This document shows, piece by piece, positions 5,578 to 29,863 of a stretch of DNA of 64,000 nucleotides. Source of the stretch: Peptococcaceae bacterium (GTDB lineage: Bacteria; Bacillota; Peptococcia; Peptococcales; BICA1-8). The notes beneath the pieces were generated by a model. The model was not told the DNA's origin. It searched no databases and saw only the letters and a list, made by a program, of their open reading frames with translations. The position numbers and the translations under genes were made by a program. The stretch lies in the NCBI GenBank assembly GCA_049366715.1, contig JBMNCQ010000004.1, forward strand, positions 244,374 to 308,373. Reading direction: 5' to 3'. How positions within the stretch are numbered: position 1 is the stretch's first letter; each line of letters begins with the position of its first letter.

Positions 5578-5639
5578 ATCTCTTCCTCCGTTTACTGCCG
5601 GAACAGCTTTTTTATGATAACATATTCGCTCACGGGTCT

Positions 5640-5755
5640 GGCTTCGGCGTCTGACTATCCTCACAAGTCTAGCCTGGGCATCAGACGCAATACGTTCACC
5701 CTACAGCAGATCTGACGCAATACATTCGCCCGGAAGTACATCCGACCCGGAATCT
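5640..5755. repeat. Degenerate ~30-bp-period repeat array (CTGAC-type cores)
   Basis: Cores CTGAC 5651, CAGAC 5682, CTGAC 5712, CCGAC 5742; two units share GACGCAATACRTTCRCCC. Confidence 0.7.
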
Positions 5756-6487
5756 TCAGGTTGCATTCAAGACTTGATCTACAGGTATACCGGCCTTCTT
5801 TAACACATATGCTCCATACTCAAACTCTCCTACCGTTTCAGGATAATGGGCATCGCTATTGACAATAAAATTCACTCCGGAATTAGCTACTGCCAATACC
5901 TCCTTAATACCGGGAAATGTATGACCGGTATTTATCTCCAGGGCCGTATTCCTTTTCGCACAGGATTTAGCCAGCTCTGAAAAATCAATTTCCATCTTGA
6001 GCCCCGGATGAGTTATCGCAAGGACATCATATCTTCCCAGGGCATCCAGCAAAGTTTTAGTATTTATATTCTTTACTTTTTCCTTTAGTCCTTTATTGAT
6101 TTTAACAAGCTGATTCCCGATTACATAATTCCAGGCCGTACTTAAATCAGCGGGATAAACATAAGGATGCAGACCCACCAGCAAATAATCCAGTTCTTTA
6201 ATGATCTCCTTTCCGACATCTATTTTACCGTCTAAACTTACAATATCAGCTTCCGCACCAACCTTTTTTTTGATGTCGGGATATTCTTCATGGAGTCTCT
6301 TTAAATCTTCTTTAATCTGCAGATAAGTATTGCTGTCTTTAACGCCCGTGCCGATGTTACCAGGTCCATGGTCAGCTATACCGACCTCGAGAAGTCCCTT
6401 CAAATGAGCTGCCTCAACCATATCCTCAACCGTAGCTCTGCCATCACTATAGTTAGTATGCAGATGATAATCACCGAAAAAATGCAT
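5756..6487 (-). CDS. PHP-domain hydrolase
   Basis: DYHLHTNYSDG, IADHGP, NSDAHYP. Confidence 0.9.
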   Translation of the reverse strand: MHFFGDYHLHTNYSDGRATVEDMVEAAHLKGLLEVGIADHGPGNIGTGVKDSNTYLQIKEDLKRLHEEYPDIKKKVGAEADIVSLDGKIDVGKEIIKELDYLLVGLHPYVYPADLSTAWNYVIGNQLVKINKGLKEKVKNINTKTLLDALGRYDVLAITHPGLKMEIDFSELAKSCAKRNTALEINTGHTFPGIKEVLAVANSGVNFIVNSDAHYPETVGEFEYGAYVLKKAGIPVDQVLNAT

Positions 6488-6510: not shown

Positions 6511-6790
6511 ATTATCGTTCTCGGTTCTCAGTTATTTTTTGTGCCCTGTGCCCTGTAATCTGTGCCCTGTGCCCTGTAATCTGTACTCTGTGCCCTGTAA
6601 TCTGTGCCCTGTGCCCCTGTAATCTGTACTCTGTGCCCTGTAATCTGTGCCCTGTGCCCCTGTAATCTGTACTCTGTGCCCTGTACTCTGTGCCCTGTGC
6701 CCTGTGCCCTGTAATCTGTATCTGTGCCCTGTGCCCTGTAATCTGTATCTGTGCCCTGTACTCTGTGCCCTGTACTCTGTAATCTGTTGT
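6511..6790. repeat. Heptamer tandem array: about 35 units of CTGTGCC/CTGTAAT/CTGTACT preceded by 3 oppositely oriented units
   Basis: Units counted directly; two 8-nt and two 6-nt variant units. Confidence 0.97.
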
Positions 6791-6905: not shown

Positions 6906-7652
6906 CTAGATTTTAGGAGATTGGATTTGGATGGGTGACGGCCTTTTTTTCCGGCGTAAATATTCTTTAACCCGTTCCGGGTCGCAATTTAAGATCTGCT
7001 CTTTTTTTAATCCCGCTTCTGTAATCAGCTTTACTGCCTTGGAAAACTCGCCGACTAATGGTGCCCAGTGGGCATCACTACCTAAAGAAATTATGGAACC
7101 TGCCTCTGCAGCAAGTCCGGCTATTGTCCGGCAGTTTTCCAGACTGCCTTTTCTGCTCGTGGTAAGGGAACTATTATTTATTTCTAAGGCTACACCTAAT
7201 TTCTTTGACGCAGCAACCAGTTGCTCAGGATTAATCATGTATTCAGGATTGCCGGGGTGCACAATAACATCTACATAGGGATGCTGCATGGCATTGATAA
7301 GAGCCTGGGTATTTTGTTCGACATTTCCGCCGGAATAACACCCCGCGTGGAAACCTGCCAGAACAATATCCAATCTTTTTAAGATTTTATCAGGTACGTC
7401 CAGATTTCCGTCAAAATTAATAATATTAGCCTCCACACCCCTTAATACCTCTATTCCTAAATATTCTTTCGGCAATACCCTTAAATTGCCGAAATGAAAT
7501 AGATGAGGTCCACCCGGCATTTGCGGTCCGTGGTCGGTTATGGCCAGCATTTTTAATCCCTTTTCTTTAGCCTGGACAAAGTTCTCATGAATCGTGCTGT
7601 AAGCATGGCCGCTGGCTATAGTATGAGTATGAAGATCAACATAAAATTCCAT
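6906..7652 (-). CDS. ycdX: PHP-family phosphatase, YcdX-like
   Basis: VDLHTHTIASGHAYSTI, TDHGP, HPGNP, LEINNSS, GSDAH. Confidence 0.9.
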   Translation of the reverse strand: MEFYVDLHTHTIASGHAYSTIHENFVQAKEKGLKMLAITDHGPQMPGGPHLFHFGNLRVLPKEYLGIEVLRGVEANIINFDGNLDVPDKILKRLDIVLAGFHAGCYSGGNVEQNTQALINAMQHPYVDVIVHPGNPEYMINPEQLVAASKKLGVALEINNSSLTTSRKGSLENCRTIAGLAAEAGSIISLGSDAHWAPLVGEFSKAVKLITEAGLKKEQILNCDPERVKEYLRRKKRPSPIQIQSPKI

Positions 7653-8920: not shown

Positions 8921-9265
8921 GTTTGGTTAGTGATTAGTGATTAGTGACTGGTGACTAGTGACTAGTGACTAGTGACTAGTCACTAGTAGTATGGTAAAGT
9001 TTATAGAGCATCGTTTATCGTTCATAGATAGAGTTCTCAGTTCTCAGATACCGGTTCTCAGTTAGTTAGTTAGTGAGTAGTAAAGTTTATAGAGCATCGT
9101 TTATCGTTCATAGATAGAGTTCTCAGTTCTTAGATACCGGTTCTCAGTTGGTTGGTTGGTTAGTTAGTGAGTAGTAAAGTTTATAGAGCATCGTTTATAG
9201 TGGATAGAACTAAGAACAGTTTTACACTGTAGCTACCTTACCTTTACCTCTACCTTCTGCTAAAG
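8921..9265. repeat. Composite heptamer array with an 86/94-bp higher-order tandem repeat
   Basis: (TGACTAG)n at 8924-8986, then super-unit GTAAAGTTTATAGAGCATCGTTTATCGTTCATAG…TTCTCAG starting at 8994, 9080 and 9174 (third partial). Confidence 0.95.
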
Positions 9266-11672: not shown

Positions 11673-14495
11673 TCAAAGCAGGACTTTCCGCAGAAACTGC
11701 CCGGTATATGATGCTTCTACTGCAACGATTTCCTCAGGAGTTCCCGTGGCAATCACCCGACCGCCTTTGTTACCCCCTTCGGGCCCCAGATCGATCACAT
11801 AGTCGGCAGACTTAATCACGTCTAGATTATGTTCGATTACCAGTACTGAATCACCGGCATCTACCAGTCTGCCTAAAACACCGAGCAGTTTATGAATATC
11901 GGCAATATGCAGTCCTGTCGTCGGCTCATCGAGAATATAGAGGGTCTTGCCGTTGCTGCGCCGGGAGAGTTCAGCAGCCAGTTTTATCCTTTGGGCCTCC
12001 CCTCCGGAAAGTGTTGTGGCCGGCTGTCCCAGTCTAATATACCCCAGTCCCACATCTTGCAGGGTTTTAAGCTTCCGGTAGATCTTGGGGATATTTTGAA
12101 AAAAATCAGCCCCTTGGTTAACGGTCATATCCAGCACCTGGGAGATGTTTTTTCCTTTATATCTGATATCTAAAGTTTCCCGGTTATAACGCTTACCTTT
12201 ACAGACCTCACAAGGCACATAGACGTCCGGCAGGAAATGCATCTCGATTTTTATAATACCGTCACCCCGGCATGCTTCACATCTCCCGCCCTTAACATTA
12301 AAGCTGAAGCGGCCCGGCTTATACCCCCGCATCCTGGAATCGGGTGTTTGCGAAAAGACCTGCCTGATATCATCAAAAACCGAAGTATACGTAGCAGGAT
12401 TTGAGCGCGGTGTGCGGCCGATAGGGGATTGATCGATATCTATGATCTTATCCAGATGCTCGATGCCTTCGATTCCCTTATGCTGCCCCGGTCTAGCCTT
12501 AGAATTGCTGTAAAGCCTTGACACCAATGCCTTATAAATTATCTCATTTACCAGCGTACTTTTCCCTGAACCGGATACTCCGGTAACACAGGTAAATACA
12601 CCTAAGGGAACGTCTGCATCAATATTTTTTAAATTATTTTCAGTGGCATTCCTGACCCTGATCCATTTGCCATTAGGCTGACGTCTTACCTTCGGTACAG
12701 GGATTTTCTTAATACCGGCTAAATACTGTCCGGTTATAGAATCCTCAACCTGCTTTATTTCTTCGGCCGTACCCTGGGCAACGACATACCCTCCCTGAAC
12801 TCCGGCCCCGGGACCAATATCAATGATATGATCCGCCGTCAGCATCGTATCTTCATCATGCTCAACTACGATTAAGGTATTTCCCAGATCCCGCAAATGT
12901 TCTAAGGTCTTGATTAACCGGGCATTGTCACGCTGGTGCAGGCCGATACTGGGTTCATCTAAAATATACAGCACACCGACCAGTCCGGAACCTATTTGCG
13001 TAGCCAGCCTGATCCGTTGTGCTTCCCCCCCGGATAAGGTACCGGCTGCCCGGGATAAAGTAAGGTAATCCAACCCCACATTTACTAAGAAATTTAATCT
13101 TTCTTTTATTTCCTTCAAGACCTGACGGGCAATAAGCATTTCCCTTTCCGAGAGCTCTAAATGGTCAAAAAACCCTTTCATTTCCAGGATAGACACATTT
13201 GTAACTTCATTAATATTCTTACCGGCAATTTTTATCGCCAGCACTTCCGGCTTCAAACGGGCTCCCCTGCACACCGGACAAGGTTTATTCGTCATATATT
13301 GCTCAATATCCGATCTGGAATAATCAGATTGGGTTTCCAAATACCTTCTTTGGAGATTGGGAATTACGCCTTCAAAAACAGTATCATAAACCCGGGCCTC
13401 ATTATACATATTCGTATATTTAAACCGGATTTTTTCCTGGCCTGAGCCATAGAGTATCCTGTCAAGATGTTCCGCTTTCAGTTTGGCAACAGGCGTGTTG
13501 ATGCTGAATCCATAATGTTTAGCCAATGATTCCAAAAGCTGTCCGTAATAACTCTGGGTACTTTTACTCCAGGGAAGGATCGCCCCCGCAGCAAGGGAAA
13601 GGCTGGAATCAGGAATTACCAGATCCGCATCGATCTCCATTTTTGAACCTAAACCGTCACATTCCGGGCAGGCCCCGAACGGACTGTTAAAGGAAAACAT
13701 CCTGGGGGTAATCTCTGCAAAGCTGATTCCGCAATCTACACAGGCAAAATTCTGGCTGAAGACAAGCTTTTCTCCGTCAATTACATCGATAAACACGACT
13801 CCGGCAGCCAAATTTAAAGCTGCTTCCAATGAATCGGCAAGCCTGTTTTCAATACCTTCCTTAATGATAATTCTATCGATCACAACTTCGATATTATGTT
13901 TCTTATTTTTATCCAGTTTAATTTCTTCCGCTACTTCCCGGAGCTCACCGTTTACCATTACTCTTACATAACCACTTTTTTTAAGCTCCTCTAAAACTTT
14001 CTGATGTTCCCCTTTTCTCCCCCTGACCACAGGCGCAAGAATTTGCAGCTTTGTTCTTTCCGCCAGCCCCATTAATTGGTCAACAATTTGCTGCACGGTT
14101 TGCTGGGCAATTTTTTTCCCGCATTTAGGACAATGAGGCACGCCGATTCGGGCAAAAAGCAACCGCAGATAATCATAAATTTCCGTTACCGTTCCTACTG
14201 TTGAACGGGGATTCCTGCTGGTGGTCTTCTGGTCAATGGAAATCGCCGGAGAAAGGCCTCCGATATAATCCACATCAGGTTTATCCATCTGGCCTAAAAA
14301 CTGACGGGCATAGGCCGATAAGGATTCCACATATCTACGCTGCCCTTCAGCATAAATCGTATCAAAAGCCAGGGAGGACTTGCCGGAACCACTTAACCCG
14401 GTAATGACCACAAATTTATCCCTGGGTATTTCAATATCTATATTTTTCAAATTGTGCACCCTGGCACCTTTAACCACAATTTTATCTTTCGCCAT
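11673..14495 (-). CDS. uvrA: Excinuclease ABC subunit A
   Basis: Two ABC modules ([28 protein letters not shown]) with zinc fingers; start at ATG 14495 behind GGAGG. Confidence 0.99.
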
Positions 14496-14519
14496 CTCTT
14501 TTCCTCCAATTTTTCTAGT

Positions 14520-14948
14520 GGGTAACATTCCAGGTCAGTTTCAGACTCACAGGCCTAAAAGCTTATTTGTCAGTGATACGCATAGGTAACTTGCGGGGTC
14601 AGCTTTTTTATTTGAAAGTAAATTTGTTTGTCAGTATATATGCTTAGAAGCAATCTTGTTGGTTGGTGTATCTCTTAAGTAAATATTTTGTATCGGTATT
14701 AATTTAGGATAGTTCAATTTGTTAGTATATGCTTCAAAGTGATCTTATCGGTCAAAATATATTTAAGCATATATTCTTGGCAAGAACAAAATTATGTGTA
14801 AATTATTATGTTTGTAAGATTTAAACTAACACAATAGAATAGCCCATAAAAACTGCTGACCAATAAAATTACCCTCTAGTAACTTCTGACATAAAGGATT
14901 ACTTAGACGCTCACCCGACTAATCATGCTGCCTAAGCAGCTCACCCAT
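14520..14948. repeat. Bipolar degenerate ~30-bp-period array filling the uvrB-uvrA spacer
   Basis: Ten GTCAG-like cores at 14534-14810, then four CTGAC-like cores at 14826-14915. Confidence 0.8.
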
Positions 14949-14952
14949 GAGC

Positions 14953-24380: not shown

Positions 24381-24577
24381 ATTTAGTGACCGGTGGTTAG
24401 TGATTAGTGACTAGTGACTAGTGGTTAGTGACTAGTATAGTTGAGATCATGGAGCATAGAGCATAGATTATGGTTCATAGTTTATGGTTCATAGTTTATA
24501 GTTCATGGGTTATGGGTTTGAGAACTGAGAACCGAGAACTGAGAACTGAGAACTGAATACAGACAACTGAGAACAGC
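24381..24577. repeat. Bipolar heptamer array filling the ctpA-minJ spacer
   Basis: About 17 NNNNYRG units (TGACTAG, AGCATAG, TTCATAG, TTTATGG), then 8 CTGAGAA-type units. Confidence 0.95.
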
Positions 24578-25759: not shown

Positions 25760-25800
25760 ATTAGTGACTAGTGACTATCCAACTTTGCCACTAGTAATTA
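25760..25800. repeat. Short bipolar heptamer element upstream of ctpA
   Basis: TAGTGAC TAGTGAC … CACTAGTAA. Confidence 0.55.
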
Positions 25801-27870: not shown

Positions 27871-28806
27871 TTACTTTCTGTCCATAACCTTGCGTACGGC
27901 TTTAATTATTTCCGGGGCAGTAAGCCCGTACTTTTCCAAAAGTTCCTGGGGCTTACCTGATTCGCCGAAAGTATCTTTGACTGCGATCCTCTCCATGGGC
28001 ACCGGACAGTTTTCCACCAGCACCTCTGCCACAGCACTGCCCAGACCCCCGAACATGTTATGCTCTTCGCAGGTCACAACTGCTCCCGTTTTCCGGGCTT
28101 CTTTCGTAATGGCGGCCTCATCAATGGGCTTAATGGTGCTGATATTCACAACACTTGCGCTGATTCCTTGCGCTTGGAGCTCCTGAGCAGCTTTTAAGGC
28201 TTCACCTACCATGATTCCCGCTGCCATTAAAGCTACATCGCCGCCCTCCCTGACAACTACAGCTTTCCCGATTTCAAATTGATAGTTTTCAGCAAAGATA
28301 CCCGGTACTTTAGGTCTGCCTAATCTTATATAAACAGGACCGTTATATTGGGCGGCTTTAAAAACAGCTTGTTTTGTTTCTTCTCCATCGGCAGGAACGA
28401 GAACAGTCATTCCGGGAACAGCTCTCATTAAGGCAATATCTTCCAGCATCTGGTGAGAACCCCCGTCTTCTCCCACGGTAAGCCCTGCATGGGAAGCAGC
28501 AATTTTTACATTTAAGTGCGTATAACCAATCGAATTTCTGATTTGGTCATATGCTCTTCCCGTTGCAAAAACCGCAAAGGAACTGGCAAAGGGTATTTTT
28601 CCCGAGGCAGCAAACCCTGCTGCACAGCCTATTAGATTTTGCTCCGCTATCCCAATATTAAAAAACCGCTCCGGGAATTCCTTAGCGAAATTCTCGGTTT
28701 TCGTCGACTTGGATAAATCGGCGTCAAGTACTACTACGTCCTTATTGATCTTTCCTAATTCAACTAAAGCTTTACCATAAGCATCTCTAGTTGCAATACT
28801 TTCCAT
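27871..28806 (-). CDS. Transketolase, C-terminal subunit
   Basis: ATRDAYG, DADLSKST, GIAEQN, GEDGGSHQ, GPVYIRLGR. Confidence 0.95.
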   Translation of the reverse strand: MESIATRDAYGKALVELGKINKDVVVLDADLSKSTKTENFAKEFPERFFNIGIAEQNLIGCAAGFAASGKIPFASSFAVFATGRAYDQIRNSIGYTHLNVKIAASHAGLTVGEDGGSHQMLEDIALMRAVPGMTVLVPADGEETKQAVFKAAQYNGPVYIRLGRPKVPGIFAENYQFEIGKAVVVREGGDVALMAAGIMVGEALKAAQELQAQGISASVVNISTIKPIDEAAITKEARKTGAVVTCEEHNMFGGLGSAVAEVLVENCPVPMERIAVKDTFGESGKPQELLEKYGLTAPEIIKAVRKVMDRK

Positions 28807-28824
28807 ATGTAAAACCACCTTTCT

Positions 28825-29042
28825 TTTGCATGCGGTATTGGTCAGTTTACACGAATAAGTTTAGATTATTGGTCAGACATGGGATCTCGTAATAATTATG
28901 TGTCAGTTATTCTATATCACTAAGTTTATTTGTCAGTAAAACTAACCACTAATGTTCACAAATATTAAAATCCCGGCAAAAAAATTACTCAAGAAAATTA
29001 CCGGCCGAAAACAATATCCATAAAAAGAACTTTAACAAACAC
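28825..29042. repeat. Bipolar degenerate ~30-bp-period array between the two transketolase genes
   Basis: GTCAG at 28841, 28872, 28902, 28932; inverse cores at 28942, 28973, 29001, 29032. Confidence 0.8.
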
Positions 29043-29044
29043 GC

Positions 29045-29863
29045 TTATCCCAATTCTTTTAGTGCTTGCTCAACCTGTTGGGCATTTGGGGCGGAACCGT
29101 GCCAGCCCGCTTGATTTTCCATAAAAGAAACGCCTTTGCCTTTTATTGTTTTGGCGATGATCATAGTGGGTCTGCCTTTAATCGTCTTAGCCGTATTTAG
29201 GGCCTCCTCTATTTGGGCAAAGCTGTGTCCGTCGATCTCCAGTACTTCCCAGCCAAATGCCCGCCATTTATCGGCCAGGGGCTCAGGAGACATAACCTGA
29301 GAAATAGGCCCGTCTATCTGCAGTCCATTATAATCCAGTATGCCCGTAAGGTTATCTAACTTATAATGAGCAGCCGACATGGCTGCCTCCCAGATTTGAC
29401 CTTCCTGGATTTCCCCGTCACCCAGCATTACATAAATCCGGTTGGCAGTTTGATCTAATTTAGCTGCCAAAGCCATACCTATGGAAGTAGAAAAGCCCGT
29501 CCCCAGGGAGCCCGTGGACATTTCCACTCCTTTCACCTTTTTCATATCAGGGTGACCTTGTAAAGAAGAATTAATTTTTCTTAAGGACAATAAATCTGTC
29601 CGGGGGAAAAAACCCTTTTCAGCCAAGGCAGCGTATAAAACCGGCGCTGCATGGCCCTTTGATAATACAAAGCGGTCTCTTTCCGGCCAGTGAGGATTCC
29701 GGGGATCTACCTTTAACTCTTTAAAATACAGATATGTAATAATATCTGCAGCAGACAGTGACCCTCCCGGATGGCCCGACCCTGCTGCTCCTGTCATTTT
29801 TACAATATGCTGCCTGATCACTTTAGCTTTCTCTTTAAGTAATGCCAAGCTTTTCTCATCCAT
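29045..29863 (-). CDS. Transketolase, N-terminal (TPP-binding) subunit
   Basis: SGHPGGSLS, RDRFVLSKGHA, LQGHP, GDGEIQEG. Confidence 0.96.
   Translation of the reverse strand: MDEKSLALLKEKAKVIRQHIVKMTGAAGSGHPGGSLSAADIITYLYFKELKVDPRNPHWPERDRFVLSKGHAAPVLYAALAEKGFFPRTDLLSLRKINSSLQGHPDMKKVKGVEMSTGSLGTGFSTSIGMALAAKLDQTANRIYVMLGDGEIQEGQIWEAAMSAAHYKLDNLTGILDYNGLQIDGPISQVMSPEPLADKWRAFGWEVLEIDGHSFAQIEEALNTAKTIKGRPTMIIAKTIKGKGVSFMENQAGWHGSAPNAQQVEQALKELG

Follow-up and report, generated by a model that had tools for sequence, protein, structure and literature searches.

A family of 31-bp interspersed repeats with opposed arms in an uncultured Peptococcaceae-like lineage, and its degenerate member in a split transketolase operon

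Several systems of small non-coding repeats have been described in bacterial genomes. Repetitive extragenic palindromic (REP) sequences are characterized by a stable GC-rich hairpin with a GTAG head, the BOX element of Streptococcus pneumoniae has the modular layout boxA-boxB(n)-boxC, and the Correia, ERIC and RUP repeats resemble miniature inverted-repeat transposable elements (MITEs). [quoted passage not shown] The available part of one account treats REP sequences and the bacterial interspersed mosaic elements (BIMEs) of Enterobacteria and Pseudomonas as short extragenic repeats (PMC2817692), and BOX and MITE-like repeats are covered by a review that was likewise available in part (PMC3184786). 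The 64-kb stretch of DNA analysed here (the window, G000:C4:244374-308373, where G000 denotes the source genome) contains a split transketolase (tkt) operon in which the two half-genes are separated by a 238-bp spacer (28807..29044) that holds a degenerate array of a 31-bp repeat unit. On balance, what the spacer holds is probably the degenerate remains of an old copy of a non-coding interspersed repeat that is lineage-specific, MITE- or BIME-like, non-autonomous and either selfish or near-neutral.

The spacer was delimited from the open reading frames (ORFs), from Pfam matches and from orthologous spacers. The N-terminal half of the transketolase (272 aa, 29045..29863, minus strand) matches Pfam Transketolase_N with an E-value of 2.7e-64, and the C-terminal half (311 aa, 27871..28806, minus strand) matches Transket_pyr and Transketolase_C. 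The source genome is a 4.15-Mb assembly in 108 contigs with 41.7% G+C and an estimated completeness of 85%, and its nearest named records are the uncultured metagenome-assembled genomes (MAGs) 'Clostridiaceae bacterium BRH_c20a', 'Peptococcaceae bacterium UBA3933' and 'Clostridia bacterium DJKA51'. Together with eight sister genomes (G001-G008), none of which belongs to the same genus, it makes up the family genomes compared here, all of them fragmented MAGs in which repeats are under-assembled.

The halves of split transketolases had been expected to lie nearly adjacent, and the spacer of about 240 bp had accordingly been taken for an insertion or expansion; the orthologous sites support both points. 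Outside the family, all 21 same-order genomes compared have only 8-36 bp between the tkt-N stop and the tkt-C start, and over 71 loci of other taxa the median distance is 26 bp, with more than 100 bp at three of them. Within the family, short spacers are present in G003 (43 bp), G004 (44 bp) and G001 (about 30 bp as read by eye, the scripted value of 103 bp taking in coding sequence and Ns), whereas repeat-filled spacers are found in G000 (238 bp), G007 (265 bp), G008 (329 bp), G006 (306 bp) and G002 (476 bp); no tkt ortholog was recovered from G005. In gene direction, the spacers of G007, G008 and G006 start with three to four direct units of the form ATTATGC-GTCTGAC-AATACTTnnGGGTGAA with a period of 31 bp and continue with two to four inverse units (..AAGTATT-GTCAGAC-GCAAnA..), the junction between direct and inverted units often being TGCAATGCTTGTGTCAGACGCAAAA. 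The occurrence of minisatellite-like tandem units in intra-operon spacers, with copy numbers that vary between genomes, is reminiscent of MIRUs. The 31-bp arrays, however, form two opposed blocks, and a single ATG frame of 7 codons was read in the tkt spacer, by eye and without an ORF scan of the spacer.

The array in the window is recognized by four 10-nt unit cores of the form TAT[TG][TG]GTCAG on the plus strand of the left side of the spacer. Cores 1 (28836..28845, a pattern match) and 2 (28867..28876) both read TATTGGTCAG, and core 2 continues with AC (GTCAGAC) and is the best match to the family profile at 8.3 bits; core 3 (28897..28906) reads TATGTGTCAG and scores 3.6 bits under the profile built from the relatives, and core 4 (28927..28936), which reads TATTTGTCAG, is found both by the pattern and by the relatives' profile. 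The four GTCAG words with TAT-type prefixes that the original prediction had listed at 28841, 28872, 28902 and 28932 are thus present, at steps of 31, 30 and 30 bp, and its central string GTCAGTAAAACTAAC is located at 28932-28946. A short conserved sequence at regular spacing between dissimilar sequence, here a 10-nt core with ~20 nt in between, also resembles a CRISPR array. The 31-bp period and the 10-17-nt core are however far below the sizes of a CRISPR repeat plus spacer, the sequence between the cores follows a consensus in better-kept copies, and the arrays are built of two opposed blocks inside operons; a CRISPR-like array was ruled out on the size of period (30-31 bp) and core (10 nt) and on the inter-core consensus in the relatives.

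The same cores are found at a second site in the window, the 457-bp uvrB-uvrA spacer (14496..14952), where units lie on the plus strand at 14534, 14569, 14598 and 14630 and inverted units (CTGAC) at 14856 and 14886. The array there extends past the two inverse cores counted earlier through a variant unit, GGCAGCATGATTAGTCGGGTGA (window 14900-14952), and continues as far as the stop codon of uvrB. Over the 64-kb window TATKKGTCAG is matched 6 times, four times in the tkt and twice in the uvrB-uvrA spacer, against an expectation of 0.36 for the window, and none of 100 shuffles reaches 6. Since a single-unit hidden Markov model (nhmmer) proved too weak, with a best E-value of 0.39 in the window, position-weight chains were used instead. 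A profile derived from the uvr locus only, whose failure on the tkt spacer had been named beforehand as the refutation test, gives a chain of four there at 49.7 bits against a background of -2.0 +/- 5.6, a value reached by 1 of 1500 random segments, and conversely the tkt-only profile scores 34.7 bits on the uvr spacer against -1.0 +/- 5.3 (0 of 1500). With a profile from the relatives only, the plus strand of the tkt spacer yields a chain of three at 12.8 bits, while random genome segments give -33 +/- 8 and attain this score in a fraction of 0.0013. Judged by these scores the two loci carry the same motif class, while extended identity between them is indeed lacking, as had been stated, the longest common word being 12 nt. 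The further claim of a genome-wide family rather than a chance recurrence also holds, given cross-scores far above background, many loci in G000 and hundreds of units in the sister genomes.

These numbers also bear on the simplest alternative, namely that the four cores reflect chance periodicity or an internal tkt promoter, since the CTGACA word resembles a -35 hexamer. The coding strand does contain one sigma-70-like match, CTGACA-16-TAGAAT (28936..28909), whose first hexamer is a unit core. Chance periodicity is nevertheless ruled out by the excess of pattern matches and by the cross-locus chain scores, and the promoter is disfavoured by the lack of an excess of such sites in the spacer (1 observed, 1.3 +/- 1.2 expected from shuffles), by the presence of a -10-like partner at just one of the four cores and by the occurrence of the same units between convergent genes, where a promoter is not needed; the alternative as a whole is therefore highly improbable. 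An internal terminator was looked for in the tkt and uvr spacers and found in neither.

The right side of the spacer is a different matter. The original prediction had described a symmetric array of four plus four units with inverse cores at 28942, 28973, 29001 and 29032, but the words at these positions (CTAAC, CCGGCA, CCGGCC and TAACAAAC) do not score as GTCAG-type cores. Under a 16-nt core profile made from the ten GTCAG units of the tkt and uvr loci, the minus strand of 28940-29050 is matched by 308 of 2000 shuffles for a chain of three and by 370 of 2000 for a chain of four, whereas a 31-nt unit profile drawn solely from other genomes marginally indicates inverted units whose cores would lie close to 29006 and 28977, the chain of two being reached by 56 and the chain of three by 25 of 2000 shuffles. 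The segment 28940..29044 is accordingly annotated as a putative, nearly erased opposite arm on the minus strand. The spacer as a whole shows no excess secondary structure, with a minimum free energy of -40.3 kcal/mol, a z-score of +0.95 and 167 of 200 shuffles folding at least equally well. What stands is therefore one clear four-unit arm with an opposite arm that is at best a faint remnant, in a spacer that does not fold. By profile score the four plus-strand units are in the 'direct' orientation and any right-hand remnant is inverted, which would fit the direct-then-inverted rule of the family described below, although the nearly palindromic core (TATTGTCWGACAATA) makes it difficult to assign an orientation to degenerate copies.

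The unit of the family is 31 bp long and follows the consensus GGGTnAA..TTTTGCGTCTGACAAT.CTT, in which a quasi-palindromic core (TTGCGTCTGACAAT, in G000 often GGTCAGA) is accompanied by a second box, GGGTnAA. Both arms conform to one consensus, gGGTnaA..TtTTGCGTCTGACAat.ctt.ggg. In the relatives the information content is highest at the core GCGTCTGAC, an invariance that is partly built in because their unit profile was seeded on GTCTGA. Applied to G000, this profile gives 35 matches of at least 16 bits, compared with 5 in a shuffled genome, and they are grouped in 20 clusters. Matches to the three-unit pattern GTCWGA-N23-27-GTCWGA-N23-27-GTCWGA number 163 in G008, 117 in G003, 70 in G007, 50 in G005, 42 in G006, 20 in G000, 13 in G002 and 5 in G001; the pattern is thus present in seven of the eight sister genomes, G004 (94% complete) having none, and the reversed-pattern control is matched nowhere except 12 times in G007. 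Outside the family it is matched in one of 45 genomes of the order, by an unrelated 30-bp tandem repeat, and across the phylum in 8 of 400 genomes sampled, where the sites inspected for seven are again unrelated tandem repeats. Among the genomes searched, the pattern counts suggest that the repeat is limited to one uncultured Peptococcaceae-like lineage, which sets it apart from BOX and MITE-like repeats. A phage origin was rejected, as the two-core pattern hit 9 viral contigs that all contain unrelated repeats, mostly with a 15-bp period.

A third member in the window (5578..5755) is nearer to the family consensus than the other two, with GCGTCTGAC at about 5649 followed by the inverted TCAGACGC, TCTGACGC and TCCGACCC, and sits between co-directional minus-strand ORFs at 5756..6487 and 4699..about 5577. 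Elsewhere in G000, arrays with recognizable units are located at C54:254905-255147 (3+2 units), C54:113848-114119 (5+1), C35:81932-82107 and C94:13422-13569. Near-perfect 31-bp tandem arrays are found at C55:94111-94574, C105:46749-47090, C74:71527-71651 and C72:30820-31027; their core is of the GGTCAGA type, with GGTCGGA in C72 and GGTCAGG in C74, and some contain stretches of N or abut the end of a contig. Such arrays point to recent expansion as a process that does occur. G000 also contains arrays with a 38-42-bp period and TGACAC/GTGTCA words (C29:12537-13109; C92:5553-6181, 12219-12769 and 7023-7327), which may be minisatellites or coding repeats.

The family seems to be undescribed. Searches of Rfam 15 gave no match at E-values up to 1 in the tkt and uvr spacers of the window and none within the arrays of loci L003, L004, L006, L148 and L149, where three weak matches fell outside the spacers; with no match overlapping the arrays, a known RNA family was ruled out. 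A full-text literature search found no description of a 31-bp repeat of this kind, and in PMC7988955 the mentions of repeat, palindromic or intergenic sequences concern CRISPR and methylation alone.

The arrays follow a strict rule of architecture. Among 22 arrays fetched from G005, G008 and G006, 15 contain units in both orientations and 7 in a single one, and in all 15 two-block arrays the direct block precedes the inverted block, the reverse order being absent. The same order is seen in every two-orientation cluster of G000. The arms consist of 1-11 tandem units, the largest arrays having 11+7 and 9+10 units, which differs from BIMEs, in which single REPs alternate, and likewise from BOX and MITE-like repeats, whose arms are not built of tandem 31-bp units. 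Unlike a REP sequence, a single 31-bp unit does not amount to a stable GC-rich hairpin headed by GTAG. At the uvr site the period and the two-block layout are retained in G005 (L149) and G006 (L148) by a sub-family unit of the GTCGGCATGA type, GTCGGCATGAyGGCTCAyGGGTTAA, with a period of 31-33 bp. The uvrB-uvrA spacer is short in G007 and G003, at 60-69 bp, and spans 287-707 bp in the remaining seven genomes of the family; that of G008 contains other palindromic cores (GGATGCATCC, GTGTCAC), other repeats predominate there in G008 and G004, and the final ~45 nt before uvrA are common to the uvr spacers compared.

With a direct block followed by an inverted one, a copy that is transcribed or single-stranded can form a single long, imperfect hairpin, and in this the relatives' copies are similar to BOX and MITE-like repeats. 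Well-kept copies are predicted to form hairpins of 250-440 nt with z-scores of -4 to -9.5, as illustrated by the tkt spacers of G008 (-133.6 kcal/mol, z -9.5) and G007 (z -4.0) and by the uvr spacers of G006 (z -5.1) and G005 (z -4.6). For REP/BIME and Correia elements, effects on flanking cistrons of the RNase III or stabiliser type have been described, and it is conceivable that the co-transcribed arms act likewise, forming a long double-stranded hairpin that would offer a site to RNase III or have a stabilising effect, and in this way would uncouple or tune expression of the neighboring cistrons. Apart from the predicted hairpins themselves, this would agree with the presence of the arrays in transcribed spacers, within operons or between convergent genes, and with the inverted arm in the filled tkt and uvr spacers halting a few nucleotides ahead of the Shine-Dalgarno sequence of the downstream gene. 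The copies in G000 are, however, weakly structured or without excess structure (z +0.95 for tkt, -1.2 for uvr and -0.8 for the third locus), three family genomes have no array at tkt at all, and the native arms match no better than chimeric ones, so that there is no sign of selection for pairing beyond a common consensus. A role at the RNA level, quite unlikely overall, would be possible for intact copies and cannot apply to the tkt copy.

In their genomic placement the arrays are again REP- and BIME-like, being short, extragenic, abundant and regularly spaced in composite mosaics, as far as the available part of that account goes. They occupy transcribed spacers within or after operons and essentially not those between divergent genes: 16 of the 20 clusters in G000 have no overlapping long ORF and are flanked by co-directional or convergent genes, and the single cluster with divergent flanks overlaps an ORF and scores weakly, with the caveat that the ORF calls are crude (longest ORFs of at least 110 aa). 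As in BIMEs, the units are mixed with other small modules, here heptamer tandem arrays. These directly adjoin 31-bp arrays in the relatives and at C72:30790-30815 of G000, as modules of one mosaic. In the window, intergenic heptamer arrays lie at 6540-6787, 8928-9256, 24383-24574 and 25762-25777, with the words TGTGCCC/CTGTAAT, TAGTGAC, GTTCTCA/TGAGAAC and ATAGTTT, along with an 86-bp repeat in 2.3 copies; TAACTGA heptamer repeats are reported for Beggiatoaceae in the available part of PMC4679880.

Turnover of the arrays is evident where closely related genomes can be compared. G005 and G008 belong to one genus, and at one intergenic site with flanks that are 90-97% identical, G008 carries a 411-bp mosaic of heptamer tandem repeats, three units, the junction motif and other modules, whereas G005 has an unrelated 72-bp GC-rich palindrome. 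A 185-bp multi-unit block of the G008 mosaic has 87% identical copies at two other loci of G005, again beside heptamer arrays. From these comparisons the arrays appear to undergo rapid gain, loss and replacement as well as dispersal of whole blocks. Presence/absence differences at orthologous sites, observed both here and at the tkt spacer, together with the dispersal of multi-unit blocks and a non-coding, intergenic and modular make-up with variable internal tandem number, recall BOX and MITE-like repeats. The family genomes are generally dense in small interspersed repeats, including a different repeat of ~110 bp (L116:1339-1451, G008:C1) that matches about 40 G005 loci with an identity of roughly 80-98%, and further short repeats (L134:115-221 and 358-419) that match many G005 loci.

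Taken together, the favoured reading is that of a small non-autonomous element which would consist, when complete, of a block of direct units followed by the same units inverted. Such an element would colonise transcribed spacers, both within operons and between convergent genes, presumably by transposition, and would be gained, lost and replaced quickly and sometimes expanded by slippage of units. The tkt copy would then retain four phased cores of one arm beside the ribosome-binding site of the C-half, with the other arm almost gone and the hairpin potential lost. A Shine-Dalgarno-like sequence, GAAAGGTGG, can be read on the minus strand at 28815..28823, 8 nt ahead of the ATG of the C-half. 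With 238 nt instead of about 10-35 nt between the half-genes, the C-half presumably relies on this site of its own for translation. The tkt copy itself is probably tolerated junk, and on this reading the element as a whole would be selfish and would lack a host function.

Several observations weigh against this reading, first of all those concerning a mobilising partner. Neither a transposase nor a target-site duplication nor an autonomous full-length element came to light, the transposase search being aimed at the Y1 type, and no gene-sized insert lies between the arms in G000 or in the fetched loci, where the arms are adjacent or less than 300 bp apart. Comparison by eye of the ends of filled and empty spacers revealed no recognizable target-site duplication, the filled sites being mosaics of several repeat types; the lack of readable termini or duplications and of a related insertion sequence is also a difference from BOX and MITE-like repeats. 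Y1 genes of the REP-associated (RAYT) and TIRYT classes are not bracketed by units at any of 16 homologue loci in 7 genomes, each of which has 0-3 profile matches that lie on one side or one strand or amount to a single overlapping site, and the family is therefore unlike the REP/RAYT pairs, no unit-flanked RAYT gene having been found. The number of Y1 homologues at an E-value of 1e-20 (16 in G008, 7 each in G005 and G007, 4 in G000, 1 each in G003, G004 and G001 and none in G006 and G002) does not track that of the arrays either, G006 having 42 pattern matches and G002 having arrays with no homologue at this threshold.

Two Y1-associated repeats of G000 were considered as possible relatives. 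The REP-like hairpins beside its Y1 genes, which have GAACCGTCCCC and GGGACAAGGGGACAGG among their cores, bear no sequence relationship to the 31-bp units, and the link was dropped. At C65:5803-6699 (L154, 5700-6760), a 299-aa Y1 (HUH) transposase homologue lies between inverted 33-nt repeats (GGGGGTCAGGCTTGAATTATTCCCTTATT), and a direct repeat of ~19 nt, GCCTGACCCCCAAAAAC, follows the gene. Solo copies of the 33-nt repeat occur at C7:3724, C9:28588, C37:89689, C48:5946 and C65:1580. The repeats flanking the gene have the 11-mer TTGGGGGTCAG in common with some G000 arrays, but the homologues in the relatives are not flanked by units and the counts mismatch, and the gene was rejected as a partner, the resemblance being a coincidence or at most a remote link.

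The manner in which the units have been conserved also fits the favoured reading less well. Native arm pairs are predicted to pair no more stably than chimeric ones (-67.4 versus -75.9 in G005, -69.0 versus -73.2 in G008, with 4680 of 5000 permutations pairing at least equally well), which argues against selection for a particular hairpin and against a simple inverted duplication of whole arms, and both were rejected on this basis. Outside the core, units within one arm are 0.42-0.49 identical compared with 0.40-0.41 between arrays; within-arm units are thus barely more alike, so most arrays are not recent tandem duplications, and these were likewise discarded as their source. In the tkt copy, pairwise identity is 0.88 across the 10-nt core and 0.33 across the other 20 nt, with 0.29 expected at random. 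The core and the 30-31-bp phase are therefore all that persists, a contrast which uniform neutral decay of a homogeneous array would not yield and which hints at constraint on the cores, for instance by protein binding. The contrast is partly one of ascertainment, because the tkt array was discovered through its cores, and decay and constraint at these cores are not separable because no same-genus relative of G000 is among the genomes. Finally, the recurrence at two operon spacers across several genera could mean a host function.

Alternatively, the units could be phased binding sites of a host DNA-binding protein, such as a dimeric regulator or a nucleoid-associated protein, that would recognize the quasi-palindromic core once every three helical turns, with the arrays acting as functional protein-loading platforms rather than selfish DNA. 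Three turns of B-DNA correspond to ~31 bp, and the period of the units comes close to this. Survival of core and phase in the tkt copy, the peak of information content on the core in the relatives, the adherence of single units to the consensus with no arm-specific matching and the strict direct-then-inverted order (15 of 15), which a defined nucleoprotein architecture would need, could all be accommodated. Yet units number in the hundreds per genome and neighbor genes as unrelated as tkt, uvrA and minE, some arrays reach 11+7 or 9+10 units and some are situated at contig ends, the presence of arrays differs between genomes of the same genus, core variants differ at one site across genomes, G004 has no pattern match at all and no candidate protein was identified. 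From the sequence comparisons a host-protein platform is thus unlikely.

Rather more speculative in what it would entail, and likewise an outside chance, is the idea that the 31-bp units are phased recognition sites of a putative protein that could be either a host protein acting on two opposed arrays or a transposase. Mu and Tn7 have transposases of the multi-site-end type, and the arrays could be what is left of such a system, as ends-only derivatives. Retention of core and phase and unit-by-unit adherence to the consensus with no arm-specific matching would be expected whenever the core is a protein site, be it for a transposase or a host protein. If true, the family would be a bacterial repeat of a new class, distinguished by arms that are modular and multi-site, by strict head-to-head polarity, by continuing unit-by-unit upkeep of the consensus and by a preference for transcribed spacers whose end lies shortly ahead of a ribosome-binding site.

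Under the favoured reading of a non-autonomous interspersed repeat, the family would account for the odd 238-bp gap in the split transketolase operon, which would then be a relic and not a regulatory device. On a wider scale, a single uncultured lineage carries hundreds of copies of a 31-bp unit under a strict direct-then-inverted rule, inside operons and with fast turnover in one genus. The arrays break assemblies, several of them being located at contig ends or beside runs of N, and they can be mistaken for CRISPR-like or regulatory arrays, while at the same time they lend themselves as a natural experiment on the tolerance and upkeep of long near-palindromes within bacterial operons.

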